Assembly (NCBI GenBank): GCA_965205425.1 | Contig: CBDBGZ010000009.1 | Coordinates: forward strand, 160,001 to 224,000 | Source of the DNA: Nitrosopumilus sp. | GTDB lineage: Archaea; Thermoproteota; Nitrososphaeria; Nitrososphaerales; Nitrosopumilaceae | DNA length: 64,000 nt | Direction: 5' to 3' | Shown: piece after piece, positions 17,767-35,412 of the stretch | Layout of the letters: each line of letters begins with the position of its first letter | How positions within the stretch are numbered: position 1 is the stretch's first letter | Notes under the pieces: generated by a model | What the model saw: only the letters and a program-made list of their open reading frames with translations | What the model was told of the DNA's origin: nothing | Databases searched by the model: none | Position numbers and translations under genes: made by a program

Positions 17767-17803
17767 CAGTATAGATCAATTTCTGAGAATAAAAAAACTA
17801 GGT

Positions 17804-18340
17804 TTAGTAGCCAATTACTCTTTTTCGCAGTTTTGATAATAGAGAAGGTTTCATCGATGCATTTTTGGCTAGAATTTTTCTTCCCTCTACATAACCGTGT
17901 CTGTCTAGTATTGCATGTTGTTTCTTTCGTAGTTTTTCAGCCTGAATTTTTTGAATTCTTGCTTGTTTTTCTTGCTGTATTTTCTTAAGATATGCCTCAT
18001 CTCTGATTCTTTGGGCATTTAGTTTTTCTTGCTTTTTGTGTGCTGTTACTTTATCGTGCATCTTTCTTGTTTCTGCATTTCTCACATTTTGCTTGAAGTT
18101 TTTGATGTCATGATACATTGTCTGCATTCCTTGTATGGAATCCTCAAATCCTTGAGCATCAATGCCAAAATAGTTTTCAGACTTTTTAGTAGATGATTTT
18201 TTACTTTTTCTCTTTCTTTTTGGAGTTGTATGTGATGTCGATTTTCTTTTTGGTGGATTAGGTAATGAAAATCCATCTGCAAATACATTATTTTTCTTTC
18301 TCTTTGATATTTTATGATCACCATAATCTAGCAAACCCAT
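17804..18340 (-). CDS. Basic low-complexity/coiled-coil protein starting with GLLDYG motif
   Basis: Start moved to ATG 18340, which lies 24 nt below the motif-B TATA box. Confidence 0.7.
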   Translation of the reverse strand: MGLLDYGDHKISKRKKNNVFADGFSLPNPPKRKSTSHTTPKRKRKSKKSSTKKSENYFGIDAQGFEDSIQGMQTMYHDIKNFKQNVRNAETRKMHDKVTAHKKQEKLNAQRIRDEAYLKKIQQEKQARIQKIQAEKLRKKQHAILDRHGYVEGRKILAKNASMKPSLLSKLRKRVIGY

Positions 18341-18495
18341 TGTATTATTTGCCAAAAAAAGGTTATTTAAAGAAAAATTGCGATCAATAAAAAATTAGAT
18401 TCATTTTTGTATGTTTCCTACACATTTTGGACATGTCAGTTTATTTTTCAAAGCATCATGCACGATTCCTTTACCATCACAGTTTTTGCATAAAC

Positions 18496-19086
18496 TCAAT
18501 TTTCTTTTCTCCTGAAAATTATCCAGCATGAATCATATGGTGCAGAGGTTTCAGCCATCTTTTCTGAACATTTAGGACAGAACATTTCTTCAACATCATA
18601 AAATGACTTTTTGCAGATTTTACAATTTTTTGGTACAATTCCATTTAGAGTAAATTTTATTCTGTGGTCTATGGGTAGGAATTCTGCTAACCACTTGTTG
18701 TTTTTCCTGTCATATACAAACTCATGAAACCATTTTACACCAATCTTACCAAAGACCAAAATCAAGGCATTAACGTTATACTTTAGATGTTCTTCATATG
18801 CTTTTTTCATCCACGTGCCAATTTGAGAGTATGGTGGATTCATGAAAAAATCCTCATTCCATTGTTGATTTAGCGCATTGTCTTTTTCTGAGAAATATTT
18901 CTCACATCTTCTATTTTTCTCATTTGCACATACGTCTATTGCAGGAGTAACGTCATAGTTCCAGACTGCATATGCATATTCAGATCGCGGGGTTTCCCAA
19001 TAGTCATTTACGTTAATAATCCCTAGATGTTGGATTGCTTTTTTCATTTTTGATACCTCATAATCACTGCAAAAACAAAGGCACAA
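18496..19086 (-). CDS. Phage-type DNA N6-adenine methyltransferase (Dam-like) with Zn-ribbon insertion
   Basis: WETP, DVCA, FMNPPYS, RIKF; inserted CKIC...CPKC; likely start at MKKAIQ. Confidence 0.85.
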   Translation of the reverse strand: MCLCFCSDYEVSKMKKAIQHLGIINVNDYWETPRSEYAYAVWNYDVTPAIDVCANEKNRRCEKYFSEKDNALNQQWNEDFFMNPPYSQIGTWMKKAYEEHLKYNVNALILVFGKIGVKWFHEFVYDRKNNKWLAEFLPIDHRIKFTLNGIVPKNCKICKKSFYDVEEMFCPKCSEKMAETSAPYDSCWIIFRRKEN

Positions 19087-19292
19087 TCACAACGACTACA
19101 AACGTTTAGTTTGTCTTTTAGTGTAACAAGATCATATTCTTCTGATAATTTCTTTCTACAAACAGGACACCAAATAACTAATCCATCAATCATATTCTTC
19201 ATCCTCATATTCTTCATCCCCATACTCCCAATCTTGGGGGTTTTGTGTATCCTCATGTCCATTAGGATCAACATCAAAAGGAATTGGAAAAC

Positions 19293-19637
19293 TCATGCCA
19301 TACACTCCTGGACCTGTGCGGTTGTGTGATGGTCTTTAGGTCTGCCACAGGATATGCATTTCTCTTTTACTTTACCCCAAAAAGAGCCAGAGGATTTGGT
19401 TTTGTATCTTGGTTTAACAGATACAACAGTTACTGTATCATCTTCCGAATAATCATCTATTGTACAATTTGATTTTACTTTTATCGCACATTCCAAATGA
19501 TAGAATCTGTGATTAATTTTGATAAATGAATCCTGTAACTCTGAATACAATACAATGTCTTTTTTGCAAAAGGTACATTTTGTCATAGAACAACCTCCAA
19601 AGAGAAGATCCCTTGTGCAGTAGCAGTATCTACACAA
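19293..19637 (-). CDS. Zn-finger protein
   Basis: CTFC...HLEC and CISC...H...C; likely start at MTKC. Confidence 0.6.
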   Translation of the reverse strand: MCRYCYCTRDLLFGGCSMTKCTFCKKDIVLYSELQDSFIKINHRFYHLECAIKVKSNCTIDDYSEDDTVTVVSVKPRYKTKSSGSFWGKVKEKCISCGRPKDHHTTAQVQECMA

Positions 19638-19821
19638 GGGATACTATGGTCGGTTTGTGCCATGTTATTTGTATGACAATTTGCAGTGACTCCAAAGCTG
19701 CACAAATTACATGACAAGCAAAAATGATTCATCAATTATTCCATCCCTTACACATTCGGCAAATTTTATTTTCCGTGTCTGTTCTTCTACCACAGTCTTT
19801 TATGCAAAAATAATATCTCAT

Positions 19822-20244
19822 TTAGCACACACTCCATCCACATTTTAGACATTCTGAATAAATTGGGATATATTCTTCATCTGAAAATTCGTCTGCTTCT
19901 GATAGGTGGTATTCTGTTTCGCACTTTGTGTTGCATTCAGGACAAACTATAAGATCGTAAGGTATCTTACCCTCATCATTTTCAATATAATTATCTGCAC
20001 CATCAAAGATAGATTCCTCAATGTTGTTTCCTTTTTCATCCTTGATTTTTCTTACAACAGAGATTTCATCACATTCAAAGTCTATTGCAAATGTTGTTCC
20101 ATCATGACCTAGTTTCTTTACATAAATTGTATCATCCAAATCATCAATGGTACAATATCTTTTGAGATATTGTATGGTATGTTGTTTTGATAGTGTTGGT
20201 AGGATTTCAACACCAGGAAATAGGATTATTGGTTTTTGGTTCAT
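19822..20244 (-). CDS. Acidic protein with C-terminal Zn ribbon
   Basis: CPEC...CLKCGW. Confidence 0.7.
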   Translation of the reverse strand: MNQKPIILFPGVEILPTLSKQHTIQYLKRYCTIDDLDDTIYVKKLGHDGTTFAIDFECDEISVVRKIKDEKGNNIEESIFDGADNYIENDEGKIPYDLIVCPECNTKCETEYHLSEADEFSDEEYIPIYSECLKCGWSVC

Positions 20245-20426
20245 GGTATAACTCCTGGTGGAACTTTGACATCCATAATTTCCGTCATGATGACAAAAGT
20301 GGTATTGCAGTCATTGCAGCAAAAACTATGCTCATTTAGATCCTCCCTTGTACTGACGCTGTTTGTCAATTCAACATCTTCTGACATACATTGACCATTG
20401 ATGCAGTGAATCTCGATTGATGCCAT
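20241..20426 (-). CDS. Small Zn-ribbon protein
   Basis: C....C...CNDC; start/stop overlaps with both neighbours. Confidence 0.65.
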   Translation of the reverse strand: MASIEIHCINGQCMSEDVELTNSVSTREDLNEHSFCCNDCNTTFVIMTEIMDVKVPPGVIP

Positions 20427-20574
20427 TAGATAATAATCTCCTTTTCTTTTTTGATTGATTTTTTATGATGTCTAATTATCTCATTTTTGATTTCATTTAG
20501 TGCAGCATATTTTAATTTGAGATGGTTACACTTTGAACATACCAGAATAAAAGATCGCAAGTTGCTAGGAATAA

Positions 20575-20787
20575 TCATTGAATAATTACCTCTTTTGTAG
20601 AGATTAAGCAAAAATTCTCTAGTGTGAAATTGATTGATACTTTTCTTATCTGTCTGTGTTTGTGATGTGTAGCATGGTGCTTTGATGATGATACCATAGT
20701 TTCAAAGCATTTACCGCATTTCTTGCAAGAGTATGGTATTTCAAACCCGAACAGATCAAATTGAACTGGTATTGATGGTGGTGTCAA
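20575..20787 (-). CDS. C2H2 zinc-finger protein
   Basis: YSCKKCGKCF......HHATHH. Confidence 0.7.
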   Translation of the reverse strand: MTPPSIPVQFDLFGFEIPYSCKKCGKCFETMVSSSKHHATHHKHRQIRKVSINFTLENFCLISTKEVIIQ

Positions 20788-21356
20788 TTCGGATAAATCT
20801 CCATGAGTTCTTTTCTTTCTGATTCGTAAAGACTGCCATGTGAGATTTCAACGTGCTTTCGGTAATCGTCTAGTTGTTCAAAGTTAAATGCCCTCATCTC
20901 TATTTTCTTGTTGCATCTCATGCAACGCAGAGTACCATTTTCTTGCAAGATTTTCTTTGGCTTGTGAGTTATTGTGGTACCGTATGACTTGAATTCCACT
21001 TTTGGTGTATCATCTGTTGCTGGTTCTGTGTGATTCTCTATTAAATTTGGAATCTCGCCATTGTTTACCAGTCTGGCAAAATCCTCAGGAGTTCCACCGT
21101 CTTTTCTAATTTCTTTCCATAGTTTAAGGCGATCAGATCCTAGTTTGATTCTTTCATGTTCTTGCTTTGTAGTTAGTGTTGTGTTGTATTCTGTATTTTC
21201 TGATTGTACCGTCTGAGTATTTTTTCCATTGATGAAATCTGTGAATAGATTCTTTGCAATTTCGTTTCTCTGCTCTATTGGGTATTTTGAGAGATATTTT
21301 TCTAATGTTTTATCATCCATGTTAAATTGAACTTTACGCTCAAAACTCAATGGCAA
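20784..21356 (-). CDS. Putative DNA-binding protein with C-terminal C2H2 finger
   Basis: CMRC...HVEISH; N-terminus resembles a ribbon-helix-helix (RKVQFNMD). Confidence 0.65.
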   Translation of the reverse strand: MPLSFERKVQFNMDDKTLEKYLSKYPIEQRNEIAKNLFTDFINGKNTQTVQSENTEYNTTLTTKQEHERIKLGSDRLKLWKEIRKDGGTPEDFARLVNNGEIPNLIENHTEPATDDTPKVEFKSYGTTITHKPKKILQENGTLRCMRCNKKIEMRAFNFEQLDDYRKHVEISHGSLYESERKELMEIYPN

Positions 21357-21357
21357 A

Positions 21358-21771
21358 TTACTTGTTCCTCCTTTGTGTTATCAGTAGTTGGGAAATATTG
21401 AACAAAACACATTTTGCATAGACATCAAAGGAAATGTTTTGTGATTGACACCATTCCTCGTTAATAATTACTGGGTGATACCCAGCAGTGACATAGTCTG
21501 AATTTCTGTTATACGTTTGAGAAGACATTGACATTTCATCACCTGAACCGTGAATAGTACCATCTAGTTCTATCGGGATGGTATGACCATACTTTTTTAC
21601 TATAAAATCAGGATAACGCCTTTCATGAATGAAAGAATGATTAATGATAACCTCATTACGTAATGGATGAAATTCTGATAATTCCTTTTGCAGTTTATCT
21701 AGTTTGGTACTATCTGAATTACGATCTCTTTTTTTGGATGTTGCTGCCCTTACAAAGGATTTTCCTTTCAT
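21358..21771 (-). CDS. Vsr/DUF559-like PD-(D/E)xK endonuclease
   Basis: YPDFIV...IELDGTIH...RN..Y...GY. Confidence 0.7.
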   Translation of the reverse strand: MKGKSFVRAATSKKRDRNSDSTKLDKLQKELSEFHPLRNEVIINHSFIHERRYPDFIVKKYGHTIPIELDGTIHGSGDEMSMSSQTYNRNSDYVTAGYHPVIINEEWCQSQNISFDVYAKCVLFNISQLLITQRRNK

Positions 21772-22028
21772 GCAGAAAACCTCTTGTTGATAAATTGGAT
21801 TATCTCGTTTAATTTTTTGCGATTATCTAGTGCAAGTGCTTCAGAGTAGGATATTTCACCAATAGATACAACAGGTAACGGAATGATTATTTTGCCTTGT
21901 TTTTTCCTAATGTGATGTTCCAACTGTACAATTATAGTTTCAATTTCAGATATTGCAGTTGGTGTATTGCCTAGTTCTAAGAGTTTTTTTATCTTGTCTA
22001 ATATTATGATGATGTTCTGATCTTCCAT
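21768..22028 (-). CDS. Hypothetical protein
   Basis: ORF with start/stop overlaps in the operon. Confidence 0.6.
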   Translation of the reverse strand: MEDQNIIIILDKIKKLLELGNTPTAISEIETIIVQLEHHIRKKQGKIIIPLPVVSIGEISYSEALALDNRKKLNEIIQFINKRFSA

Positions 22029-22234
22029 TATTGTATAGCCCCCAATGGAATTTTTAATTTCCTAACGTCTGATTTTGTGACAAATGATAATCTTATTGCA
22101 CAACGCAAACAGAACTGTTTACTTCGTGGTCTTGATACTGCATACTTTCCTTCTAGTATGATTTTGCAGTGATAACAGGTGATGTTATGATACTTACAGA
22201 TGTATAATCGAGAGCCACGTGTCAGTTTGACCAT
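22028..22234 (-). CDS. Small Zn-finger protein
   Basis: CYHC...FCLRC. Confidence 0.65.
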   Translation of the reverse strand: MVKLTRGSRLYICKYHNITCYHCKIILEGKYAVSRPRSKQFCLRCAIRLSFVTKSDVRKLKIPLGAIQ

Positions 22235-22346
22235 TATTTTTCATCCTCCATATTTGAGATTCCTAGTTCATCGCAAATTGCTACAAACTGTACCTTGCCA
22301 TGAGCCGATACATACTGATCATGTATGATTCGTCTTACTGCTGAAT

Positions 22347-23750
22347 TCATTGTATTACTCCTTTAAGTGAAGATTCAGATTTGTTACCGTTTGAATAGTA
22401 AATTAGGGCATGACCCCAAGAGCAGAACATTCTATTTGATTCAGGAATGGTGACTTTAGGAGGTCTGCAAAAATCACACCTTCCAGCGTGTAGTCTCTGC
22501 TCGTTTGTGAGTTTACCGTAAACTTGGGTGATCATGTTTGGATCATCCCAGCCTAAGGACATTACATATACGACATTGTAATTGCAACGTCTTAGCCACA
22601 TATGGCATCCTGAATGTCTTAAGGCGTGTCCTGGCTTGTTTGACAGATAGTATCTGTCACCATCAATTACTTTTTTGTAGACGTTAGGGTTGGTTACTGC
22701 ATCTCCTGAAATTCTATCTACACTTGCATATGCTTCTCGTAGTAGTTTATTGAATTTGGATTTTACATCTGATAGACTGGAATATTTCACGAATGTTTCA
22801 TTTGGAGTTAGCGTATTGAGTAATTCTAAACATCTTGGATTGAAAATCAGCTTGTCAAATGAAGCAAAGGTTTTCTTTTCATATACTCCTAGTGCTTCTG
22901 CATAATTGCAAATGTGATCCTCTATTGCTTCTTTCTTTAGTGTGAGATTATTTTTCATGGTGTGTAAAGTATCAGGTCTTGGTATCATTTCATGTGCTAT
23001 TGCAGTTAGTGCCTCAAAGTTGTATTTTGTTGAATGGTCTTTCATGAAATCTAGTATTTTATCAACTTCTAAATCTGATAGTTGGACGTTGGCATATGCT
23101 CCATAGTTTTCTTTTTTTCTTGATAATACACCATCAGAATTTTTTGGCAATGGCTTACCATTTCTAAAACAAAAGTTTGCAACTGCTGATACATATGCAG
23201 TAATTGATGTGTCTGCTCCTGACTTTAGATGTAGTTTGGAATTTTTCGATGTAGAATATTTTGTCTCACCAGCTAGGAATAATTCTTTGAATCTTGATAG
23301 TAGTTTTTCTGTTTCTTCTGGAGAAATTAAAAATGATAATGGTGCAACGTTTAGTGTTTTGCATACTGTGTAAAATGCTGAAACCTTACTTTTCCATGCA
23401 ACGATACCAGTTCCTTTCTTGCCACCTTTGAGCATTTTGTCAATCCATATTTTGACCTCTGGATTCTTACCATCAAGCCATTCTGATTTTAGTAATTCTT
23501 CATAGTGCTGTTTCTCTTTTTGAATTTGTGATTTTTTCACTCTACCTGATTTTGTCTTTTCTAATCTACCTTGTGAGATTAATTTCTTGAAATAATTAGT
23601 AATCATTGGAGGCGAACGATTAACTAATTCTGAGATTTGGTTTCTATTGTAGCCTTGAATTACCAAATCATAAACTCTGTCCAAAAGACGATTCTCATCA
23701 TCTTCTGAGCCAATACGACCACCGAAATTCTTGTAATTTCTACGTGCCAA
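22347..23750 (-). CDS. Tyrosine recombinase/integrase with N-terminal HTH and C-terminal Zn finger
   Basis: Catalytic set R (IPRPD), K (EKKT), HALRH, LGW, Y (QVYG); tail CDFC...FCSWGH. Confidence 0.85.
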   Translation of the reverse strand: MARRNYKNFGGRIGSEDDENRLLDRVYDLVIQGYNRNQISELVNRSPPMITNYFKKLISQGRLEKTKSGRVKKSQIQKEKQHYEELLKSEWLDGKNPEVKIWIDKMLKGGKKGTGIVAWKSKVSAFYTVCKTLNVAPLSFLISPEETEKLLSRFKELFLAGETKYSTSKNSKLHLKSGADTSITAYVSAVANFCFRNGKPLPKNSDGVLSRKKENYGAYANVQLSDLEVDKILDFMKDHSTKYNFEALTAIAHEMIPRPDTLHTMKNNLTLKKEAIEDHICNYAEALGVYEKKTFASFDKLIFNPRCLELLNTLTPNETFVKYSSLSDVKSKFNKLLREAYASVDRISGDAVTNPNVYKKVIDGDRYYLSNKPGHALRHSGCHMWLRRCNYNVVYVMSLGWDDPNMITQVYGKLTNEQRLHAGRCDFCRPPKVTIPESNRMFCSWGHALIYYSNGNKSESSLKGVIQ

Positions 23751-24105
23751 ATTCTTGCACTCCTGAAACCAGAATGCAAGGAAATGGTAGAAACTACAGT
23801 ATTGACTGAGAAGTTTGTGTATGAATTTTCTATTTTGTGTGTTTCCTTTGCATGCATGTTTGGACGTTGTGACTATGAATTAGTTGATCTTAAAGGTTAC
23901 TGTCAAGAAATATCGATCTAAATTTGTAAAAATTACGTCAAATTGACAATTCAGATCGCCAGAATATTATAGATCAATTCAAAAAAAAAAGATGCAGTTG
24001 GGGTCAGCATACGTGTTTGGACGCTTGTATTGACTGTGTGGTTAAATCCATAGCCTCAACTGCACTAGAATTATAACCAGTATGATAAAGTCATGAAGGT
24101 TATTA

Positions 24106-25251
24106 TAGTTAAGGCATTAAATATTTGAATATTTTAACAACTCGAACGTCTCCATTATCTAGTCTCTTCTGCATGTGTTTTCTCATCTCAGTTCCATTTG
24201 CAAAGAATGTATTGGCATTACCATTTTTCTCTTCTCTCCACTGTACCTCAATTGGATTGAGTTCTGGGGTGTATGCAGGAAAATATCTTATGATTACATT
24301 TCTTTTTGATTTCTTGAGAAATTCTTTTACTCTGACACTTTTGTGGTATGATGCATTGTCTGCAAATAATAACAGTTTCTTGCCAAATTGTTTCTGCAGT
24401 GATTCTAAAAAATCAAGAAATGAGTCTGTGTTTGATTTATCATAGAACCTACAAAAAAATACGCCGTCATCCCCCAATGCACCAAATGATTGAAATTTTT
24501 CTCGAGTGTAATTAATTGGTGTGGTAATGTTATTGCCTGCAAGATACCATCCGCGCTTTATGTTAGGTGCTATCTTGTTTGTTGACTCATCCAGACATAG
24601 TGTGGTGTATCCCAATTTGGAATATTTTTTGATACTCCTTTTTGCGTTTTTTTAAAACGGGTTTGTTCCTCTTTTGAGGCTGATTTGTGATGTGTGGGAC
24701 GTGGTTTTTTTGATGAGAATCCAATTCTGTGCAGCAATTCACGCATTCCTCTTGCAGAGTATAGGGTGTTGTATTTTTTATTCACATGTGTAATTACCAT
24801 TCTTGTACTCCACATGAATTGGTTAAATCCAAACTTTTCTGGACCTGAAATTAGATCATTTCTTAATGATACTAGCTGTTTTTCATTTAGAAAACATCTA
24901 GAACCAGAATATTTCTTGCGGTGTGATGCAGATATTCCCTCTTCATCCATTCGATTTAGCCAGTAGGACAAAGTTGATGGTATGACATCCAGACTTGCAC
25001 ATATCACAGAATACGGAATATTTTGTTTTCTTAGTATTGCAGCCTTTAATCTTATCTTTGCTTTTGCATTTTTTTCATTCTTGCATACTTTTCTTAAAAA
25101 ATTAATGCTTGTACCTTTCATGAATTGATTTCCAGAGGAAACCTTGGATTGTCTTGTACTCTTTGACATGGTTTCATGAATTGATTCTACGATCTAGATC
25201 TTTTGAGTTAAAATACTTGACAGTTTATTCAAAATTTATATGCCTAAACTA
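24106..25251 (-). mobile_element. IS630-family element inside the provirus (ORFs 24570..25169 and 24109..24615)
   Basis: TIR TAGTTAAGGCAT / ATGCCTAAACTA flanked by TA; LDES, DNASYH, YTPELNPIE; slippery TTTTAAAAAAA in the ORF overlap. Confidence 0.9.
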
Positions 25252-25267
25252 TATGTTCTAATCAGAT

Positions 25268-25867
25268 TTGATAAAAATAGAAATAATTCTCAAAAGATTT
25301 AAGATTGTAAATTTATTCCAATACATGAAAATTGCATTAATTGCAGTTGTTGCAATAGTCGGAATTTTTGGAATTATTTATGTCATGGGTGATGATGATG
25401 AATCTACAAAATATTACAATGAATTTACAGAAGAAGATGTTAGGAATTTTGAGTTAGAATTATTTGAAATTACAAATCAGAAAAGAATTGAAAATGGTGT
25501 GCAACCCTTAGTATGGGATGATAGATTACATAGTATAGCAAAAAATCATAGCCAAGACATGGCAGAAAAGAATTATTTTAATCATAATAATTTGGATGGA
25601 ATGTCTGCTTTTGATAGGGGAAATAATGCATACTATGAATGTGAAAAAGAAAGAGAGAGTATTATGTATGAAGGAATTTCTGAAAATATTTCTCAAATGG
25701 GATTAGAACGTAAAAATTATGAATCAATAGATGAAGAAACTATCGTTGATGGTTTGATGAATAGTTCAGAACACAGAGAAAACATGTTAGATAATGCATA
25801 TATAAAAATTGGAATTGGTATTGCAATAAATGAAAATCATTTGTACACAACTCAAAACTTTTGTTAG
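25268..25867 (+). CDS. Membrane-anchored CAP/SCP-domain protein (copy 1)
   Basis: N.KR..NGVQPL, HSQDM..NYFNH, SENI, MNSSEHRENM, TQNFC; likely start at MKIAL. Confidence 0.88.
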   Translation: MIKIEIILKRFKIVNLFQYMKIALIAVVAIVGIFGIIYVMGDDDESTKYYNEFTEEDVRNFELELFEITNQKRIENGVQPLVWDDRLHSIAKNHSQDMAEKNYFNHNNLDGMSAFDRGNNAYYECEKERESIMYEGISENISQMGLERKNYESIDEETIVDGLMNSSEHRENMLDNAYIKIGIGIAINENHLYTTQNFC

Positions 25868-25910
25868 TTTAGATCGCCAGAGATAAAAAGACAAAAGTAA
25901 TTTTTATTTT

Positions 25911-26108
25911 ATGAGTAAATTGTCAAACACAGACACAATGATTTTACTTGGAATTATTGGAATTGTCGTGTATGCCTTAATGACATATTCTTTAGACATA
26001 TCAAATAATGATACAATATGGATTGCGTGGATTATAATCAGTATTATTTTACTTGTAGTTGGGATTACAATCAAAGTATACACTAAAAATTCATCATCTG
26101 AAATTTGA
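25911..26108 (+). CDS. Small two-TM membrane protein
   Basis: Two hydrophobic stretches; GATCGCCA...ATAAAA promoter-like sequence upstream. Confidence 0.65.
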   Translation: MSKLSNTDTMILLGIIGIVVYALMTYSLDISNNDTIWIAWIIISIILLVVGITIKVYTKNSSSEI

Positions 26109-26201
26109 TCTGTCAAACCTAAATTTTGCCACACAGTATCCTAGAAAAAATACTTTTCCCATCAATCCAAACAAAATTAATTCATACAACGGAGATTCCA
26201 A
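26094..26201 (-). CDS. 35-aa single-TM peptide (not in ORF track)
   Basis: MESPLYELILFGLMGKVFFLGYCVAKFRFDRSNFR (TTG start), 25 nt below motif A. Confidence 0.45.
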   Translation of the reverse strand: MESPLYELILFGLMGKVFFLGYCVAKFRFDRSNFR

Positions 26202-26242
26202 GATCCATCAGATACAACAAATGAGAATAAAAAAACTAGGTT

Positions 26243-26422
26243 TTATAGTTCCCACCATGCTTTAGTTTTCTTTGCTTTCTTTTTTGATTTAGTTTTCTTC
26301 TTGGAAATTCCAAAATCCAACAATCCTGGAATAGATGATTTACCATTAGACCTTTTCTTTGGGATTTTATCTATTGGATGTGGGCTATCTGCATGAATTC
26401 CTATTCTTGATTTTTCAAACAT
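26243..26422 (-). CDS. 59-aa basic protein with GLLDFG motif (not in ORF track)
   Basis: MFEKSRIGIHADSPHPIDKIPKKRSNGKSSIPGLLDFGISKKKTKSKKKAKKTKAWWEL; tail resembles that of the 863-aa protein. Confidence 0.65.
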   Translation of the reverse strand: MFEKSRIGIHADSPHPIDKIPKKRSNGKSSIPGLLDFGISKKKTKSKKKAKKTKAWWEL

Positions 26423-26536
26423 AACGATAGAATTTAATGTATTTTATAGGAAATAATGATCTAAAAAGATTAGGTTTTGTTAGATTTAGATCCATAGTTT
26501 TTCACAATCTAAATAAATGATCAGATTTAGTAATAA

Positions 26537-27082
26537 ATGATGTCAATTTCAGTATCTTATCCAAAAATTATAGAATTGGAAGACGGTAATCAAGTTGAAA
26601 TTACAACAGACGTATGGAAAAATAGACAACTTGTTGTAGAAACTGACAGAACAGAAAAAGAAGTTAGGGAAATTTTTGAAAAAGAAGGCTTCAAAACAAC
26701 GATAAAAGAATTTGTTAAAAATAATCAATTGGGTTCTGGAATGGTTAAAAAAATTGATGATTGGCAAGTGCATTTTAGATTTTTCCAACATGGCGATCAT
26801 ATACAAATTGATGGAGAAGTTGAAGTTTCCAGTGATTACACACAACATCTTACACATGGTTGGATCTCTGCATTCAAAGAAAGTATGGATATAATTTCAC
26901 GACATTTTAATGAACTTTGGGTTTATCACACAAAACTAAAAAAATATGTGAAAAGAATTGTCAAAGAGAATATTTTAGAACTTACTGAACCAAAAACAAA
27001 GACAGATGTTATTGATTTGTTATTGATTGGTATTGGAGCATTGTCTGCTGGTTTGTTAGTTGCAAGTGCTTTGAAGAAATAA
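26537..27082 (+). CDS. Hypothetical protein with C-terminal TM anchor
   Basis: 181-aa ORF with hydrophobic tail. Confidence 0.7.
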   Translation: MMSISVSYPKIIELEDGNQVEITTDVWKNRQLVVETDRTEKEVREIFEKEGFKTTIKEFVKNNQLGSGMVKKIDDWQVHFRFFQHGDHIQIDGEVEVSSDYTQHLTHGWISAFKESMDIISRHFNELWVYHTKLKKYVKRIVKENILELTEPKTKTDVIDLLLIGIGALSAGLLVASALKK

Positions 27083-27084
27083 AA

Positions 27085-27621
27085 TTATTTGATTCCTTCT
27101 ATCAATGTTAAAATCTGAACAAAAATTATTATTTTTTCCATTGTTGTTTTTTTATCTCTAATTATATATGTTGAAATATTTTCAAAATTTCGATATGATG
27201 TTATTTGCTCACAAATATTTTTTGATGTTTCATAAAAATTTGAAGTTCTTATTTTATCTAGTATTTTCTTAACTTGAATATTATCCAACTTGTTCTCTAA
27301 TTGTTGAAAACAATACAATTTCCCTTTTTCTGTAAATATTAGAGAACCTGATGAAATGATTTGATTATCGTCATTTTTATATTCAATTGCTACATCATCT
27401 AGGATTCCAACCTCTTGAAAATATTCTAATTCTTTTTGTAATTGAGCCATATCATCATCATAGTTTTCTATATTGATATTGTTTTTCGTTTTATCACAAA
27501 AATTATTTATTTCATTTTTCACATGATTCATCATACTTCCTTTATTACGAATATAGAAAATAACCCATTGTTGAAAGTTTGTTAATTCAACAAACGGAAT
27601 AATCCTTGTTTCATCACTCAT
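27085..27621 (-). CDS. Hypothetical protein (very AT-rich)
   Basis: 178-aa ORF; FTEKGK resembles a winged-helix wing. Confidence 0.6.
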   Translation of the reverse strand: MSDETRIIPFVELTNFQQWVIFYIRNKGSMMNHVKNEINNFCDKTKNNINIENYDDDMAQLQKELEYFQEVGILDDVAIEYKNDDNQIISSGSLIFTEKGKLYCFQQLENKLDNIQVKKILDKIRTSNFYETSKNICEQITSYRNFENISTYIIRDKKTTMEKIIIFVQILTLIEGIK

Positions 27622-27668
27622 CAGGTTAATTCAAATTTTTACATTTAATTATTTTATGTTGATCGCAA

Positions 27669-27884
27669 TCACCTATCATCTTTTTTCTCATAAATTTTTC
27701 CTAATTCCTCAAATAGTTTCTCATACTGCATCATTAGACTTTCAATTTCAGACTTTATTGTATCTGAATCCCATTTTGCTGCGATCAAGATTTGTATTCT
27801 TTCTAGTATTTCACGTTCAGTATCATATGATTCCTTTTCTAACGCTTCTTCTTGTTTGGTTTCTTTTGTTTCTTCTTTTTCCAT
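27669..27884 (-). CDS. Small acidic helical protein
   Basis: 71-aa ORF overlapping the end of the HNH gene. Confidence 0.55.
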   Translation of the reverse strand: MEKEETKETKQEEALEKESYDTEREILERIQILIAAKWDSDTIKSEIESLMMQYEKLFEELGKIYEKKDDR

Positions 27885-28825
27885 TTTTTAGATTCCTCAA
27901 GATTCCATCCGTGTAACTCATTATGACACTTTCGACATAGGGCGATCCCGTTGTTTTTGTTTAGCGAGAGTTTTGGTTGGATTGCCTTGTAGATTAAGTG
28001 ATGTGAGATTTCTGCTTTGGAATGACATATTTGGCACTTGTAATTGTGTAGTTTTTTGATGGTTGCAGACCATGATTGGAGGGCATAGCGGTATTCAGTA
28101 GGAGGGAGTTTGAGGGGAAAGCCTAGTTTTTTGAGTTGGTTTAGATTGGATTTTAATATTTTCTCAGGATAGAGTTTTCTATATTTCTTCTTATATTTTT
28201 TAGCCGTATCTTTATGTTTTAAACGATATTGTTTAGCTCGTTTATCGCATGTCTCTTTATTTTTTTGGTAATGATCTTTTTTGGCTTTTTTAATTTTTTC
28301 CTTATTTTCTAATGCATATTGTTTCTTACCTTCTCTGATCTTTTCTTTATTCTTTAAACGATATTGTTTTCGTTGTTGTTTTACATTATCTATATTTGAA
28401 TGATAATATTGATTAGTTTTCTTTTTGATTTTTTCTTTATTTTTGTGATAGTGTTCTTTTTTCTGTTGTTTTATTTTCTTTTTATTATCTAACCTGTATT
28501 GTCTACTTTGTTTATTGAGAATTATTTTATTTTTTTGACGATATAATTTAGTCTTTATTGAAATCTTTTCTTTATTCTTTTGTACATATTGTTTATTGAT
28601 TTGTTTGATTTTTTCTTTATTGTGTATACGATATTGTTTGTTATGTTTTAATATTTTTACTCTGTTTTTCTGATAATGTCTTTTTTTCTGTTTTCTAATT
28701 TTTTCTTTATTTCTTTTTCTATATTGTTTAGCTTGTTGTGCTATTTTTATTTTATTATTTTCATAATATTTCTTATCATATTTCCTTTGATTTTCTTTCT
28801 CTTCTTTTGATTTCTTTTTTGCCAT
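27839..28825 (-). CDS. HNH endonuclease with long Lys-rich ~15-aa helical repeats
   Basis: Repeats like KQYRxxNKEKIK; C-terminal CQIC...HH...N...LCRKCHNELH. Confidence 0.85.
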   Translation of the reverse strand: MAKKKSKEEKENQRKYDKKYYENNKIKIAQQAKQYRKRNKEKIRKQKKRHYQKNRVKILKHNKQYRIHNKEKIKQINKQYVQKNKEKISIKTKLYRQKNKIILNKQSRQYRLDNKKKIKQQKKEHYHKNKEKIKKKTNQYYHSNIDNVKQQRKQYRLKNKEKIREGKKQYALENKEKIKKAKKDHYQKNKETCDKRAKQYRLKHKDTAKKYKKKYRKLYPEKILKSNLNQLKKLGFPLKLPPTEYRYALQSWSATIKKLHNYKCQICHSKAEISHHLIYKAIQPKLSLNKNNGIALCRKCHNELHGWNLEESKKWKKKKQKKPNKKKR

Positions 28826-28919
28826 TTCTATTATTCTAATATTTGTCTACACATTTTACAAAAAATAGAATCATCCTCATCAATCTCATTTTCAAATCCA
28901 CAACGAGAACAGATAACTA

Positions 28920-29075
28920 TCAAGAATAATACCTCTCAATTTCCTTGTTGCAGGTAACACATTGAACAATTACAATATCAGTAGATGGGATTTTGAATTC
29001 AGATGTTGATTCGTGTTTGCAAAATCCAGTTCTTAGATATAGGACTTGATCCTGTGTGTAATCTTTTTTAGGCAT
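28920..29075 (-). CDS. 51-aa putative Zn-binding protein (not in ORF track)
   Basis: MPKKDYTQDQVLYLRTGFCKH...QCVTCNKEIERYYS. Confidence 0.5.
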   Translation of the reverse strand: MPKKDYTQDQVLYLRTGFCKHESTSEFKIPSTDIVIVQCVTCNKEIERYYS

Positions 29076-29089
29076 TATAGTTTAGAGTT

Positions 29090-29168
29090 ATTGAGGGCTC
29101 AGAGGGTCACGGCTTCATCATATTGAAGTCAGAAATCACGCTTCCCGATTCTCATCATTGCCCTCAAT
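29090..29168 (-). ncRNA. C/D-box guide sRNA
   Basis: ATTGAGGGC-A-ATGATGA-19nt-CTGA-7nt-ATGATGA-12nt-CTGA-GCCCTCAAT: four consensus boxes in canonical order and a perfect 9-bp terminal stem. Confidence 0.85.
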
Positions 29169-29252
29169 TATTCTAAATTTTCACCTCCAGTTTAGGCCAG
29201 CAAACGTTTTGATTTTGTATTGACTGTGTGGTTTTAGTTTGCATAGTTATAA

Positions 29253-29314
29253 TAGGGCCCTACTTTAATATTAATGTTTAGGGCCCTATACAGTTAAATA
29301 TAACTAGGGCCCTA
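29253..29314. promoter_or_regulatory. Three palindromic operators TAGGGCCCTA interleaved with two divergent TATA boxes
   Basis: Copies at 29253, 29279 and 29305 (exact 26-bp period); spacers contain TTTAATATTAA and TTAAATATAA. Confidence 0.85.
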
Positions 29315-29325
29315 TATCAAATCTA

Positions 29326-29490
29326 ATGATGCGAATATTAAAAAAAATAAATCGAACAGTTGGTGATAAACAATACTACAAATATCTAATTCCTGTTCCT
29401 AAAGAGATAATTGAAGATATGGGATGGTCAGAACTAACAAATGTTGATTTTAGGATAAAAGGAAAAATGCTCATCATTGAAAGAGAATGA
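29326..29490 (+). CDS. AbrB/MazE/SpoVT-family repressor, 54 aa (not in ORF track)
   Basis: MMRILKKINRTVGDKQYYKYLIPVPKEIIEDMGWSELTNVDFRIKGKMLIIERE; swapped-hairpin signature; ATGA overlap with the CAP gene. Confidence 0.8.
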   Translation: MMRILKKINRTVGDKQYYKYLIPVPKEIIEDMGWSELTNVDFRIKGKMLIIERE

Positions 29491-30086
29491 ATTATTATCT
29501 CCTAGCGATTCCAGCTATTGTTTTTCTTTTTGCTTTTGCAGTTTTTAGAGATGTTGAACAATCTGATCCAACACTTGAACAATACATATCACTAGAACAC
29601 AGACCTAATTATGACTTGAAAAATATAGAAAAATTGTTAGTAGAATATACAAATGAAAAAAGAATCAAACATGGAGTACAACCATTAGAGATTGACAATC
29701 AATTATACCTTCTTGCAAAAGAAAGAAGTCATGATATGGTAACAGGCAATTATTTTGATCATGTGAATTTGGATGGTTTGACTGTACAAGATATTGCAAT
29801 CAATACAGGATACAAGTGTGAAAAAGAATATGAAGGAATATCTTATGACGGTGTATCTGAAAACATCGCATTAAGACCACTTTCAAAATCATACATAATT
29901 GAAAATGAAATAAAATTATATGACTGGCATACAAATGAAAAATTGTTTGCAGAATTGAGTATTAATTCCGTAATGGATTCAACGGAACATAAAGAAAATA
30001 TGTTACATCCAGTTAATACTAAAATAGGGATTGGAATAGCAATTAATTCTGAGAATAAATTATATCAAACACAATTATTCTGCTAG
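29487..30086 (+). CDS. Membrane-anchored CAP/SCP-domain protein (copy 2)
   Basis: NEKR..HGVQPL, DM...NYFDH, SENIA, MDSTEHKENM, TQLFC. Confidence 0.88.
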   Translation: MNYYLLAIPAIVFLFAFAVFRDVEQSDPTLEQYISLEHRPNYDLKNIEKLLVEYTNEKRIKHGVQPLEIDNQLYLLAKERSHDMVTGNYFDHVNLDGLTVQDIAINTGYKCEKEYEGISYDGVSENIALRPLSKSYIIENEIKLYDWHTNEKLFAELSINSVMDSTEHKENMLHPVNTKIGIGIAINSENKLYQTQLFC

Positions 30087-30709
30087 TAATCCATCATACC
30101 TTTGAATCCAAAAGGATCATCATCACTCTTTTTCTTTCTTCTTTTTGATTTGGTTCCACTGCTTCCATAATCAAGTAATCCCTTAAACACAAAATCATCA
30201 TTGCTTTTCTTTTTACGTATGGTGGTTTTTGTATCGCTTCCATAATCTATCAATCCACTAAAACCAAAACTATTCTTTTTCTTTTCTCTCTTTGTAGTTG
30301 TCTTTCTCTTTCTCGTTTTCTTTTTTGGTTTCTCAGGTTCCATAAATCCAAAAAATCCACCTGAATCTTTCTTTGTTTTTCTCTTGGGCTTTGAATCTCC
30401 AAAAATTGAATCAGTTAATACAAACGGATCATTTTTCTCACGTTGCTTTCTTACTCTGATTTTTGTCTGTCTTTTTGTTTTGTTTCTGTGACAGTCAAGA
30501 CATAATGCTTGAAGATTTCCTATTGAGTTGTTACTAGGATCACCATCTCTATGATCAACATCATAATGTATTCCTCCTCTGCCTATCGGCTTGGAACAGT
30601 GATTGCATAGTTCTCTTTGACCTCGTGCTATTTTTTCTCGATTTGATTTTCCAACGTTCTTTCTCTTTGGTCTTAGTTTTTCTGTGAATCCATCAAAGAA
30701 GCCTGTCAA
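30083..30709 (-). CDS. HNH nuclease with basic/aromatic disordered tail
   Basis: CNHC...DVDHRDG...N...NLQALCLDCHRNKT; tail carries GLIDYG, GLLDYG and GMMDY. Confidence 0.85.
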   Translation of the reverse strand: MTGFFDGFTEKLRPKRKNVGKSNREKIARGQRELCNHCSKPIGRGGIHYDVDHRDGDPSNNSIGNLQALCLDCHRNKTKRQTKIRVRKQREKNDPFVLTDSIFGDSKPKRKTKKDSGGFFGFMEPEKPKKKTRKRKTTTKREKKKNSFGFSGLIDYGSDTKTTIRKKKSNDDFVFKGLLDYGSSGTKSKRRKKKSDDDPFGFKGMMDY

Positions 30710-30779
30710 ACGATCTGATCATGAAAAAGGTAAAATAAAAAAGATCATAGATCGCTATTTTTACAAATATCTAATTTGC

Positions 30780-33371
30780 CTAAAAATCCCAAAATCCTTT
30801 TTTCTTGGATTTTTTAGTTATTGTTTTCTTTTTTTTCTTTTTTACTGGTTTATCATAATCCATCATTCCAGTTATGTTTGATTTTTTCTTCCCTCTCTTT
30901 TTGGTTGCAGAATAATAATCATCAATAGGTTGAGAACTGAAAACAGATTTACCTACTTGTGATTTTTCGAATACACCACGAATAGCATGTGCCTCATAGA
31001 TTTTTTTAGGTCTACCTCCACCACCTCCGAAATAACCAAATCCACTACCATATTTTCTAAATGCAAATCTTTGTCTTTTACGTTGTTTTGGTGTTGTAGT
31101 TGTTTTTGTTGTAGGTGGTCGATATACAGGAACAAAAACAGGATCTTCAACAGGAGGATCATCAATTATAGGATCTGTTATCTGTGTAGGTGGGTGATCC
31201 CAAAACAAAGTTACAAATCCTTGGTCCTGATCTTGTTTTGGTTTGGTTCCTTGTTTTGAATCCGGTTTTTTCTTGAGAGGATTATCAATTAACGGTTCTA
31301 ATATTGGTCTAACTTTCTGCTTTGGTTTTGTTTTTCTTCCAACTGCCATAATACTTAACATACCTCCAACCTTAACACCAGGCTTTACACCACTTTTCAA
31401 TTTACTTTTACTTCCTGTCTTTGCACCTTTTCTCACAGTTTTACTAACTTGTTTGGTAACCTGTCCGTTCTTTCCAGTGTTCCAAAAGTCTTTTAGTTTC
31501 TGTGTTTGATTTTTTACAGTCTTTCCAGTTTGCTTTGCTGCATTTTGTTGTACCCATTTAGGTTGAGTTTTTTGTTTAGTAGATTGTTTAGTAGATTGTT
31601 TGGTTTTATTTTTTTGTATCAACTGCTGCTTTCCTGATTTGACAACTTTTCCAAATCCTGATGATTCACCTAATGCTGCTCTACTGTTTTTGTGTGGTTG
31701 CTTTACTTTGGCATCTTTTCCCAATTTTAAAATTCTGTCTGAGACCTTTTTGTTATTTGCCATAATTTTTTTAACAGCATTACCCTTTGCAGTTTTTACA
31801 ACACCTTTGCCAAATATTTCTGAAATAGTTCTAGGTTCTAAATCAATTCCTTTTGGAATTTCTTTTGATGTAATGTTTCCAGTTTTTCTAATTAGTAGAT
31901 TAGGGTTTACTTTGTAAGATTCAGCCTTGCTAGTTCTGATACGATTTTTGTCAATTTTAGGAACCTTGCTTGTAGCTCGTGCATAACTTATAGGATCACC
32001 AATTCCAAACTTTCCCTTGTTTAATGATCGTGGTTTTCTTTTTGGCACAGCAGAACCAACCTCTTCAGTCATTCCTTTTACATTCTTGTTTTTTACGCCT
32101 ACTTTTGCACCCTTGGATATTGCCTTTGCTACTTTTGGAACTTTGGGTAAAATGTTAATACCATATTTTGCAGCACCAATAGGTGGAACAATTACACTAG
32201 CACCAATAATTAATGCAGATGGCACAGCAGAACCGATACCATATGCAGGATTAGCCCAAAAATCAGTTTCTACTTTTTTAACACGTTCATTGAAATTTTT
32301 TGTAAAATCAGTGTTGCTCTCATAAGATTGTACCCCTGCATCCAACGGTGCAAAAATCAAGTTATCTAAGGAATTACCTTTCTGTGGAATCTGTTCTTTT
32401 CCTCGTACATACCTAACTACGTTTTGTCCTGTAATGTATAGATCTTTATATCCTGCATGTTGTCCTTTTGCATATTCCTCAAGAGGCGAACCAATTTTTT
32501 TGGGTTCAGGTTTTTTCACATCATTAAAAGAGAATTCATCAAATGGGTTACGTTGAGGTACAGTTCTTGCATATGGTATTGGTTCAGGAAATTTCATAGG
32601 AACCGTTCCCACTAGTGCAGGGTTTAATTTTGCCTGTTGTACAATACTATCACGTCTTTTTTTATTTTGAGTTGCTCTGATTAGTGCTGCTGCAGATGAT
32701 TCCTTTGATGTAACGACAGTTTCATCTACTGTTCTGTTTGCTTGTTGTTGTGCAAATTTACGCTGATCAGGATTTGATACTGATTCTTTTCTAGGGGATG
32801 GTCTGCCACCTGCACGTTGTAATTTGGTACTATCATATCCTGCTGATTCAATGCTTTGTTTTACCTTTTGATTCTGTGCAGTTGTTGCTTTGATTTGATT
32901 AATTTTATTTTGTTGCTGAGATTCTCTTAATGCAATTTGTCTTCTCTCTTCTGCCTTTACTGCTGCTGATCGTGCATTGGTAATTGATGATCGTCTATTG
33001 TATGCATCTTTTGCTTCTTTGCTTCTGGCATAGTTTCGAGCCAATGTTACAGCTGATGTGTTTCTATATCCTGCAGGATTTCTTGCTATCTGTCTTTGTG
33101 CCTTGGCTTTAGCCCACTGTGGAACGTTTGATTGCCGTAATGCTAGTCTTTGCAACTCTGCATTTCTATTTCTATTAATGGCATTAATTCTGGATGAATA
33201 TCTTCGAATTGCTTTACTGTTTGGTTCTCGGGTATATCCAATCAATCTTCTTATTCCATTGCGAGGATTTGTGCGATATTTTGGTTGTCTGCGATATTTT
33301 GATGGTCTAGCGCCAAGGGCTGCAACCTGAGCATTATATCTACCATTAATTGATTCTCTGGTTAGTGCCAT
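30780..33371 (-). CDS. 863-aa highly basic protein, candidate virion core/DNA-condensing protein
   Basis: Arg-rich N-terminus, one central hydrophobic segment, Lys-rich C-half; motif-B promoter upstream. Confidence 0.7.
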   Translation of the reverse strand: MALTRESINGRYNAQVAALGARPSKYRRQPKYRTNPRNGIRRLIGYTREPNSKAIRRYSSRINAINRNRNAELQRLALRQSNVPQWAKAKAQRQIARNPAGYRNTSAVTLARNYARSKEAKDAYNRRSSITNARSAAVKAEERRQIALRESQQQNKINQIKATTAQNQKVKQSIESAGYDSTKLQRAGGRPSPRKESVSNPDQRKFAQQQANRTVDETVVTSKESSAAALIRATQNKKRRDSIVQQAKLNPALVGTVPMKFPEPIPYARTVPQRNPFDEFSFNDVKKPEPKKIGSPLEEYAKGQHAGYKDLYITGQNVVRYVRGKEQIPQKGNSLDNLIFAPLDAGVQSYESNTDFTKNFNERVKKVETDFWANPAYGIGSAVPSALIIGASVIVPPIGAAKYGINILPKVPKVAKAISKGAKVGVKNKNVKGMTEEVGSAVPKRKPRSLNKGKFGIGDPISYARATSKVPKIDKNRIRTSKAESYKVNPNLLIRKTGNITSKEIPKGIDLEPRTISEIFGKGVVKTAKGNAVKKIMANNKKVSDRILKLGKDAKVKQPHKNSRAALGESSGFGKVVKSGKQQLIQKNKTKQSTKQSTKQKTQPKWVQQNAAKQTGKTVKNQTQKLKDFWNTGKNGQVTKQVSKTVRKGAKTGSKSKLKSGVKPGVKVGGMLSIMAVGRKTKPKQKVRPILEPLIDNPLKKKPDSKQGTKPKQDQDQGFVTLFWDHPPTQITDPIIDDPPVEDPVFVPVYRPPTTKTTTTPKQRKRQRFAFRKYGSGFGYFGGGGGRPKKIYEAHAIRGVFEKSQVGKSVFSSQPIDDYYSATKKRGKKKSNITGMMDYDKPVKKKKKKTITKKSKKKGFWDF

Positions 33372-33420
33372 AGTATCACCAAGAATTCCATTTCAAGGTT
33401 ATTTAAGGAAAAATTATTGC

Positions 33421-34238: not shown

Positions 34239-34269
34239 TGATATAGATCAAATACTGAGAATAAAAAAA

Positions 34270-34629
34270 CTAGGTACTAGACCCATGATGTAACCTGTTA
34301 GTGACTAGTTGATAAATCACTATTCCAATAGATAACGCCAACAATACATATCCCACAGTTCTGGCAGGCTCATAAAACGATATCATCATGGAATTTACCA
34401 CCAGCCCTACAATCCCTACTAGTTGAACTGAATGGGTCCTAAGCCATATTATCCCTACAAAGAATCCCCAAATGGCAACAGGTGTTAGTTCACCTAGATT
34501 CCATTGTAAAGGCATTAGTAACACTCCAAACCCATCTTTTTCAAAATCACATGATGCATCTTTAAAGCAATTATCAATTACTTGTAGAAATGTAGATTGT
34601 AAAAATAAAACTATGATATTAGGATACAT
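34270..34629 (-). CDS. Multi-pass membrane protein
   Basis: Three C-terminal hydrophobic helices; stop codon lies within motif A. Confidence 0.7.
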   Translation of the reverse strand: MYPNIIVLFLQSTFLQVIDNCFKDASCDFEKDGFGVLLMPLQWNLGELTPVAIWGFFVGIIWLRTHSVQLVGIVGLVVNSMMISFYEPARTVGYVLLALSIGIVIYQLVTNRLHHGSST

Positions 34630-35367: not shown

Positions 35368-35412
35368 TGATATAGATCAAATACTGAGAATAAAAAAACT
35401 AGGTTTTATGTT

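Follow-up and report, generated by a model that had tools for sequence, protein, structure and literature searches.

What does a six-residue motif do in several viral proteins that otherwise have nothing in common? The question is raised by a 64,000-nucleotide (nt) stretch of DNA from Nitrosopumilus sp., a marine ammonia-oxidising archaeon (assembly GCA_965205425.1, contig CBDBGZ010000009.1, positions 160,001 to 224,000 of the forward strand; hereafter the window), which holds an integrated provirus-like element of about 25 kilobases (kb). Proteins of this element carry, in lysine-rich tails that are predicted to be disordered, one or more copies of the form G-hydrophobic-hydrophobic-Asp-aromatic-Gly, here called the peg. 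The most likely answer is that the peg is a short linear docking motif, multivalent and set in disordered polybasic tails, through which three proteins would reach a common partner. That it serves for docking in one way or another is, in our judgment, highly probable. More narrowly, and only tentatively, we propose that it is a tag for particle assembly or cargo, whose partner would be the provirus's own assembly machinery. To our knowledge, almost nothing is known about replication, DNA condensation and particle building in the viruses of ammonia-oxidising archaea, and most of their genes are unannotated.

The carriers and their pegs are the following (lengths in amino acids, aa; ORF, open reading frame):

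17804-18340, minus strand: carrier 1, a 178-aa basic coiled-coil protein (ATG at 18340)
18323-18337, minus strand: peg GLLDY, residues 2-6 of the 178-aa protein (start MGLLDYG)
30083-30709, minus strand: carrier 2, a 208-aa HNH nuclease with its HNH domain at residues ~21-95 and a K/R-rich tail at 96-208 (113 residues) bearing three pegs
30242-30256, minus strand: peg GLIDY, first copy in the HNH tail, residue 152 on; absent from the shorter homologue P0010
30167-30181, minus strand: peg GLLDY, second copy in the HNH tail, residue 177 on; kept in P0010
30086-30100, minus strand: peg GMMDY, third copy in the HNH tail, residue 204 on, at the extreme C-terminus; kept in P0010
30780-33371, minus strand: carrier 3, an 863-aa protein of net charge +122 with a hydrophobic segment at residues 376-405; seven homologues
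30855-30869, minus strand: peg GMMDY, residues 835-839 of the 863-aa protein
30783-30794, minus strand: terminal peg FWDF, the last four residues of the 863-aa protein, 24 residues past its first peg
26243-26422, minus strand: 59-aa ORF, the C-terminal remnant of a second, diverged gene of the 863-aa family
26312-26326, minus strand: peg GLLDF of the 59-aa ORF
26246-26257, minus strand: terminal peg WWEL of the 59-aa ORF

All six copies of G-[LM]-[LIM]-D-[YF] reported by an earlier, sequence-only reading of the window were recovered at the same positions, on the minus strand, by ORF listing and by six-frame scan. A scan of the whole window in six frames with the looser G[LIMV][LIMV]D[YF] gave seven matches, i.e., the six pegs and a seventh in a frame of eight codons. 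Among hand-listed ORFs, the strict form G[LIM][LIM]D[YF] occurs six times in the 7151 aa of 41 element ORFs and not once in the 41 host ORFs, a sample of 11085 aa within the window, which bears out an enrichment of element over host. Two thousand within-protein shuffles of the element ORFs gave 0.064 matches on average and two at most, against the six observed, and shuffling only the four ORFs with a peg (863-aa, HNH, 178-aa and 59-aa) gave a mean of 0.004. Moreover, a peg sits at the extreme terminus of five of the 41 element ORFs (host ORFs: 0/41), and every one of the six has, no more than 25 residues away, an 8-residue stretch with at least five K or R.

Lysine-rich composition as the source of the peg is rejected on the strength of the shuffles together with lysine-rich control proteins: no peg was found in the lysine-rich 328-aa HNH protein of the element or in a host aldolase-like protein with a lysine-rich tail, and a host RecJ-like protein has a single LVDY, which lies outside its lysine repeats. 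A repeat at the DNA level is likewise rejected. The codons for the two hydrophobic residues vary among copies (TTG CTA, TTG TTG, TTG ATA, TTA CTT, ATG ATG), as do those for Gly (GGT or GGA), so that the likeness exists at the level of the protein. In 150 homologues of the element's ATPase (58,817 aa), the pattern was matched once. Nine of the ten Nitrosopumilaceae spindle-shaped virus records served as a further control (293,634 nt) and contain five strict matches in frames of at least 40 codons, none of them (0/5) beside a basic tract; the tenth record, left aside, is equal in length to one of these nine.

The peg also appears to have a terminal form. The chain ends FWDF (863-aa protein), WWEL (59-aa ORF) and MMDY (HNH protein) are all hydrophobic-hydrophobic-acidic-aromatic and are read as terminal variants of the same peg. 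With these included, the distance from peg to peg is 21-28 residues in the 863-aa family, the HNH family and the 59-aa ORF. Outside the motif, the HNH, 863-aa and 178-aa proteins have no mutual similarity (pairwise E of at least 0.03). A second small likeness, F[AF]DGF[ST]....PKRK, links residues 20-36 of the 178-aa protein with residues 4-20 of the HNH protein (8 of 17 identical), and the mini-motif FADGFS is kept in 3 of the 4 homologues of the former:

18266-18283, minus strand: FADGFS, followed by ...PKRK, in the 178-aa protein; resembles FFDGFT...PKRK at the HNH N-terminus
30686-30703, minus strand: GFFDGF, a peg variant at the HNH N-terminus, followed by ...PKRK

Two further candidates are weak and were left out of the counts:

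40481-40498, minus strand: N-terminal MGFMEF of a 106-aa ORF, a possible peg with no basic tract after it
39091-39105, minus strand: FKDYD, a possible weak peg within the basic tail that ends the ATPase (...KKKSPFKDYDVKT)

The corresponding ATPase tail reads PLKDYK and ...YKDY (chain end) in the two closest homologues that have one (P0017 and P0097, respectively). The C-terminal tails of the ATPase family (P0016-P0165) are mostly acidic, unlike the basic end of the window's ATPase, and often contain D[YF][DG] pieces such as PDYDSTYV or MDYGF; such pieces, which may be related to the peg, occur in 13 of the 150 tails versus 5.7 in shuffled tails (maximum 14 in 1000 shuffles).

The motif is kept in homologues from the 863-aa, HNH and 178-aa families, while the linkers beside it vary in sequence and in length. 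All four homologues of the 178-aa protein begin with MGL[LMI][DN]YG, one of them (P0013) having Asn in place of Asp, and the linker behind this start has large indels; over the five sequences, M1, G2, L3, Y6 and G7 are invariant. The start itself is set at the ATG at 18340, since a TATA-like box at 18359-18377 excludes an upstream TTG. An AlphaFold2 model from the 5-sequence alignment (mean predicted local distance difference test score, pLDDT, of 77) predicts about 60 disordered N-terminal residues, comprising the peg and a basic linker of about 55, then a helix at 62-148 and two short helices; residues 1-12 have a pLDDT below 50. Searches of two fold libraries with this model gave no match at E <= 0.001, and the protein had no match among phage records (tblastn) or in the protein atlas.

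In the 863-aa family (47-52% overall identity), G-M-[LT]-D-Y-G is kept in five of the seven homologues, although only 13-19 of 36-39 aligned positions are identical in the 40 residues preceding it. FWDF closes the chain in four of the seven, PWWKL in a fifth (P0007). The 863-aa protein matches no known family; its profile had no PDB match (0), and no match was found in the protein atlas, among phage records (tblastn) or, by profile search, in the genome contigs (0 loci).

The 208-aa protein can be classed as an HNH endonuclease on its core residue pattern and its profile matches. In its alignment (A2), the CxxC...DH...N...CxxCH positions are invariant, corresponding to C35, C38, D52, H53, N65, C70, C73 and H74. 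Pfam scores lie just below the cut-offs for HNH_3 (24.2 bits, cut-off 24.8) and HNH (21.1, cut-off 21.4), while 18 PHROG families are matched, 17 of them HNH endonucleases and one a terminase small subunit (best E 1.7e-8), and the PADLOC ZorE HNH profile is matched at 2.8e-8. Against the phage collection, tblastn gave only four weak matches to the HNH domain, from bacterial phages. In the homologue P0010 (56% identity), two pegs are kept and the tail is more conserved than the catalytic domain, with 35 of 38 residues identical at 171-208 versus 54 of 73 in the HNH domain. For the HNH and 863-aa tails, disorder is predicted from composition; the charge-hydropathy measure used is crude and also mislabels the HNH domain.

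The 59-aa ORF has to be set apart from these three carriers. It aligns to the last ~40-60 residues of the 863-aa family, with 63% identity over 38 aa to residues 837-873 of P0003 (pairwise E 3e-14) and 43% identity to the window's own 863-aa protein. The alignment takes in the whole ORF, i.e., a ...FEKSRIGIH-DSP-P--KIPK... block, the peg, a K-rich stretch and the aromatic C-terminus. Upstream of it, tblastn found no further fragment of the family. A gene with a CAP domain (25268-25867) adjoins the ORF and shares 43% identity with the CAP gene next to that of the HNH protein (29487-30086); together with the 59-aa remnant, this makes the segment at ~25.27-26.43 kb look like what is left of another such element that has diverged. 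The sequence-only reading had counted four otherwise unrelated proteins and had pointed out that the 59-aa and 863-aa tails are co-linear. The likeness of these tails holds (43% identical), but it reflects common descent and not independent acquisition, which leaves three independent carriers. The remnant segment (within 24109-26430) also holds a small membrane ORF, the 59-aa fragment has a terminator/promoter box of its own, and an IS630-like insertion sequence (HTH and DDE_3 ORFs) lies beside the segment at 24109-25169.

With few fixed residues, a disordered and terminal site, drifting flanks, unrelated carriers and several copies, the peg has the typical traits of a selected short linear motif, and we propose that three unrelated provirus proteins acquired it independently. 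The earlier suggestion of a portable tag fits this evidence, namely a conserved peg, drifting linkers, three families, terminal positions, one tail modelled as disordered and conservation at the protein level.

This element splits a host gene:

16436-41403: integrated provirus-like element of ~25 kb with all carriers, splitting a host phosphoesterase gene
16436-16446 (TATTTCTAGAA) and 41392-41403 (TATTTTCTAGAA): imperfect direct repeat, 11/12 nt, marking both junctions

The interrupted gene is an SbcD-related phosphoesterase (TIGR00024), of which the ORF at 16197-16454 covers profile positions 15-76 of 224 and the ORF at 41457-41906 positions 91-208. A term look-up in a survey of thaumarchaeal mobile elements (PMC6563490) returned neither PCNA nor a phosphoesterase target. 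The element's P-loop ATPase (39079-40209) matches all ten of the ten listed "Nitrosopumilaceae spindle-shaped virus" records by tblastn (23-30% identity, E 4e-21 to 6e-9), and the ATPase is named a core gene of spindle-shaped viruses (excerpts of PMC10866085). A 225-aa protein, the N-domain of a 530-aa immunoglobulin (Ig)-like adhesin and one HNH domain are also common to the element and those virus genomes (BK067782-BK067792; PMC10866085, in excerpts). On account of the ATPase and these further genes, the insert is read as a provirus distantly related to the Nitrosopumilaceae spindle-shaped viruses. Unlike the element, the nine virus genomes scanned have no peg beside a basic tract. None of the three carrier families is matched in the Nitrosopumilaceae spindle-shaped virus genomes, nor are the 178-aa and 863-aa families matched elsewhere in the phage collection. 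A PDB sequence search with the ATPase gave a match at the P-loop only, and a profile search of the genome contigs with it returned only two 3-kb contigs. For a candidate recombinase of 467 aa (22347-23750), profile searches gave a weak HTH_40 match but none to a recombinase. Profile searches of the element turned up no DNA polymerase gene and no clamp gene, and Rfam gave 0 matches.

A capsid-protein candidate is provided by the 87-aa ORF at 37309-37572 (minus strand, ATG at 37572), which has two hydrophobic helices and a capsid-like size and position. It had no match in the related virus genomes, the phage collection or Pfam, and its PDB matches are designed or low-complexity proteins. It is connected to two of the carriers by a short DNA box:

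18359-18377, minus strand: promoter-like box TTTTTCTTTAAATAACCTT before the 178-aa gene
33395-33413, minus strand: identical box TTTTTCCTTAAATAACCTT before the 863-aa gene
37591-37609, minus strand: identical box before the 87-aa capsid-like gene

This 19-nt box (TTTTTCYTTAAATAACCTT) has exactly three copies in the window, versus 0.29 expected, each 18-23 nt ahead of an ATG, and is probably a B recognition element (BRE)/TATA promoter giving short-leader or leaderless transcripts.

How, then, could the peg act in such a provirus? In the mechanism we favour, the lysine tracts would keep the carriers on DNA, presumably by binding DNA or an acidic surface, and the pegs would plug a pocket of one shared, probably oligomeric, partner, with avidity arising from two or three pegs spaced 21-28 residues apart. 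The tag would thereby connect the two DNA-bound basic proteins (863 aa and 178 aa), as well as the HNH nuclease, to the spindle capsid as it assembles, and the carriers may in this way be packed together with the genome. Several features argue for a role in assembly: the 863-aa and HNH genes close a block of genes for membrane proteins, an adhesin and the ATPase; the carriers are extremely basic (net charges +29, +30 and +122) and look like genome-coating proteins; and the 19-nt promoter box is common to the 178-aa, 863-aa and capsid-like genes only. A more specific version, in which peg and polylysine tail form a code dedicated to virion loading in one lineage of archaeal spindle-shaped viruses, recruiting the nuclease, genome-condensing proteins and perhaps the ATPase to DNA and capsid, is possible, if on balance doubtful.

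Bacteriophage T4 offers a precedent of a kind. Its internal proteins are diverse and basic, have only a capsid targeting sequence in common and can bring a nuclease into the head (excerpts of PMC3012670). By analogy, the element would likewise use a short tag shared by otherwise diverse basic proteins. However, the T4 sequence is single and N-terminal, whereas the pegs are N- or C-terminal and repeated; there is no likeness in sequence, and T4 is a virus of another type. The T4 capsid targeting sequence is removed by the prohead protease, while the pegs are apparently retained.

A number of points weigh against an assembly role. The 87-aa protein is called capsid-like from its size, two hydrophobic helices and position only, and the meaning given to the shared box is our interpretation. 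The HNH gene has a T/A-rich box of its own, and its co-transcription with the 863-aa gene is only presumed. The HNH homologue P0011 has DDFGL and a terminal DNFGL in place of the pegs, which are therefore kept in one of two homologues, and P0007 lost the internal peg of the 863-aa family although it still ends in PWWKL. Distant relatives of the element do without the tag, which can thus be no general requirement for building such particles. We know of no archaeal virus that uses a tag of this sort. Finally, the grammar and position of the peg fit clamp-binding motifs about as well.

This last point leads to the strongest alternative, which we consider rather unlikely but the best of the rivals: the peg would be a degenerate PCNA-interacting (PIP-like) motif that plugs the hydrophobic pocket of the host sliding clamp and whose lysine flanks bind the acidic clamp surface and DNA, so that the HNH nuclease, two basic proteins and perhaps the ATPase would be gathered on clamp-loaded DNA. 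L-L-D-Y can be read as h4-x-D-a7 of the consensus QXXhXXaa, and KKGLIDYYL of human polymerase (Pol) iota binds PCNA with a dissociation constant (Kd) of 0.39 uM (tables of PMC8191301 and PMC7225939). A full-text literature search for the hexapeptides returned only the literature on this Pol iota motif, and no description of the tag was found. A search for an archaeal clamp-loader PIP peptide yielded no paper, and a resemblance to it is not claimed here. Archaeal PIPs are C-terminal (NucS, NreA) or at the extreme N-terminus past an unstructured linker (TIP) (excerpts of PMC4929162), positive flanks shift PIP affinity by four orders of magnitude and may offset weak cores (PMC6881253, in excerpts), and the ligase and the uracil-DNA glycosylase of P. 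furiosus use pentapeptides that lie beside, or need, a basic cluster (excerpts of PMC2770678). Nucleases are often tethered to clamps, and one of the carriers is a nuclease; profile searches found no DNA polymerase gene in the element; and the number of pegs in a tail, three at most, would agree with a trimeric clamp. The host PCNA gene lies outside the window.

Position by position, the agreement is partial, and two of the four defining positions of a PIP fail. In place of Gln at position 1 (three residues ahead of h4), the six copies have M, I, F, V, F or N. At the hydrophobic position 4, these copies and the homologues have L or M. An aromatic (Y or F) stands at position 7, but position 8 is G, D or the chain end, and in the Pol iota register both plug aromatics are missing. 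A disordered or terminal region with positive flanks is present, judging by the pLDDT of the 178-aa protein, the terminal positions and the K/R content; disorder was modelled for the 178-aa protein only. The earlier label "loosely PIP-like" is therefore justified by the hydrophobic residue at position 4, a single aromatic, basic flanks and a terminal site, and unjustified as regards the glutamine and the second aromatic. In comparison with the PIP box and PIP-like motifs, the peg has the same short hydrophobic-x-Asp-aromatic core, at disordered extreme termini with basic flanks and on a nuclease; it differs in lacking the glutamine and second aromatic, in its conserved Gly on both sides and in its tandem arrays with 21-28-residue spacing. 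Tandem PIP arrays are unusual. Furthermore, canonical PIPs were sought at the termini of the ATPase family and occur in 0 of 150 homologues, and two carriers have the promoter of the capsid-like gene, which would be better suited to structural proteins.

T4 again provides a comparison. There, the unrelated proteins gp43, gp55 and gp33 bind the clamp through a common short hydrophobic-acidic terminal epitope behind a divergent linker of variable length (excerpts of PMC2988020), an arrangement that the 178-aa family resembles. The T4 epitopes, however, bind a phage-encoded clamp and are acidic in context and single in copy, whereas the pegs of the element are polybasic in context.

A dedicated receptor might also be dispensable. 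The pegs could act as aromatic or hydrophobic stickers and the lysine tracts as spacers, the tails then associating with one another and with DNA and condensing the viral genome as a protein-DNA coacervate, a reading that we regard as improbable. Weak aromatic or acidic pegs on a disordered chain that gain strength by avidity are familiar from FG repeats and from the DPF/FxDxF motifs of endocytic adaptor partners. Those arrays are eukaryotic and have known receptors, whereas the spacers of the element are polylysine. Several sticker-like pieces per tail (FGF, FVF, GFFGF, GFGYFGGGGG, DGF and the pegs), the regular 21-28-residue spacing and the extreme net charge would all suit condensation, and the long helix predicted for the 178-aa protein could dimerise. 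Nevertheless, the hexapeptide seems too exact for a sticker, with its flanking Gly, near-invariant Asp and L or M at fixed places in three families; a conserved acidic residue is left unexplained, and other lysine-rich proteins of element and host have no such stickers.

Still less probable is docking to another host hub, such as the Cdv/ESCRT budding machinery, single-strand-binding protein (SSB) or chromatin proteins. Unrelated viral proteins that independently acquire one short motif are typical of host-hub mimicry, and the window contains a gene for a CdvC/Vps4-like ATPase (47976-49169). DDDPFGF, present in the HNH tails, is an acidic-aromatic piece that we take to be reminiscent of SSB-type tails. 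The context of the peg, however, is basic and not acidic, and the peg presumably bears no resemblance to known MIT-interacting motifs.

Very improbable, in our view, is that the tails are peripheral membrane anchors that bind either an acidic membrane or the capsid lattice on its hydrophobic inside. The basic-plus-aromatic composition, the Met-Gly-hydrophobic start of the 178-aa protein and the hydrophobic segment of the 863-aa protein could be taken that way, but a near-invariant Asp and flanking Gly are not expected for non-specific insertion.

That the motif is a functionless by-product of chance, of AT-rich, lysine-rich coding or of a recent DNA duplication has hardly any probability left and is already disfavoured: it was defined only after being seen, and one of the four supposed carriers is a paralogous remnant, but none of the 2000 shuffles reached the observed count, codons differ among copies, the peg is conserved in homologues at 47-70% identity, and it is absent from the lysine-rich controls and, in basic context, from nine related genomes.

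A second repeated box, ACCTAGTTTTTTTATTCTC, has nine copies at no more than three mismatches, versus 0.05 expected:

17785-17803, minus strand: ACCTAGTTTTTTTATTCTC copy
26223-26241, minus strand: ACCTAGTTTTTTTATTCTC copy
34257-34275, minus strand: ACCTAGTTTTTTTATTCTC copy
35386-35404, minus strand: ACCTAGTTTTTTTATTCTC copy
37271-37289, minus strand: ACCTAGTTTTTTTATTCTC copy
38770-38788, minus strand: ACCTAGTTTTTTTATTCTC copy
38979-38997, minus strand: ACCTAGTTTTTTTATTCTC copy
39066-39084, minus strand: ACCTAGTTTTTTTATTCTC copy
40930-40948, plus strand: ACCTAGTTTTTTTATTCTC copy

Most copies lie at or just past a minus-strand stop codon and about 25-30 nt ahead of the next start, which makes a combined T-run terminator and promoter of the element likely.

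Other repeats and genes of the window are worth recording. The second HNH protein of the element (328 aa, 27839-28825, minus strand, 34% K+R) has N-terminal basic repeats of ~15 residues (45-nt period, 9 copies) and is pegless. The secreted Ig-like adhesin (530 aa, 35413-37005) contains two tandem 219-nt repeats, 94% identical, at 35944-36384, which match bacterial surface Ig-like domains. At 18496-19086 the element encodes a Dam-type N6-adenine methyltransferase, an orphan with a zinc ribbon at its C-terminus. On the host side, the RecJ-family nuclease (56012-57256) begins with about ten KKTPAKKVT repeats that give a weak histone-H1-like match, an extension from which the peg is absent, and the aldolase-family enzyme (12835-13773) has a K/N/P-rich repeat tail without a peg.

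For the annotation of the locus, the 59-aa ORF becomes a gene remnant, and the element a provirus of ~25 kb whose borders are defined and whose repeated regulatory boxes fall into two classes. The shared tag offers a direct experimental handle on the hub on which this provirus lineage depends. If that hub were PCNA, a wider clamp-binding grammar would exist in archaea, and the virus would bring a nuclease and proteins that coat DNA to the clamp of its host. If it were the capsid or an assembly component, the peg would be the first packaging tag known from an archaeal virus and a possible tool for loading spindle capsids. If true, a virion-loading code would be the first signal for cargo targeting to be described in an archaeal virus, and one transferable enough for three unrelated genes to have acquired it independently.

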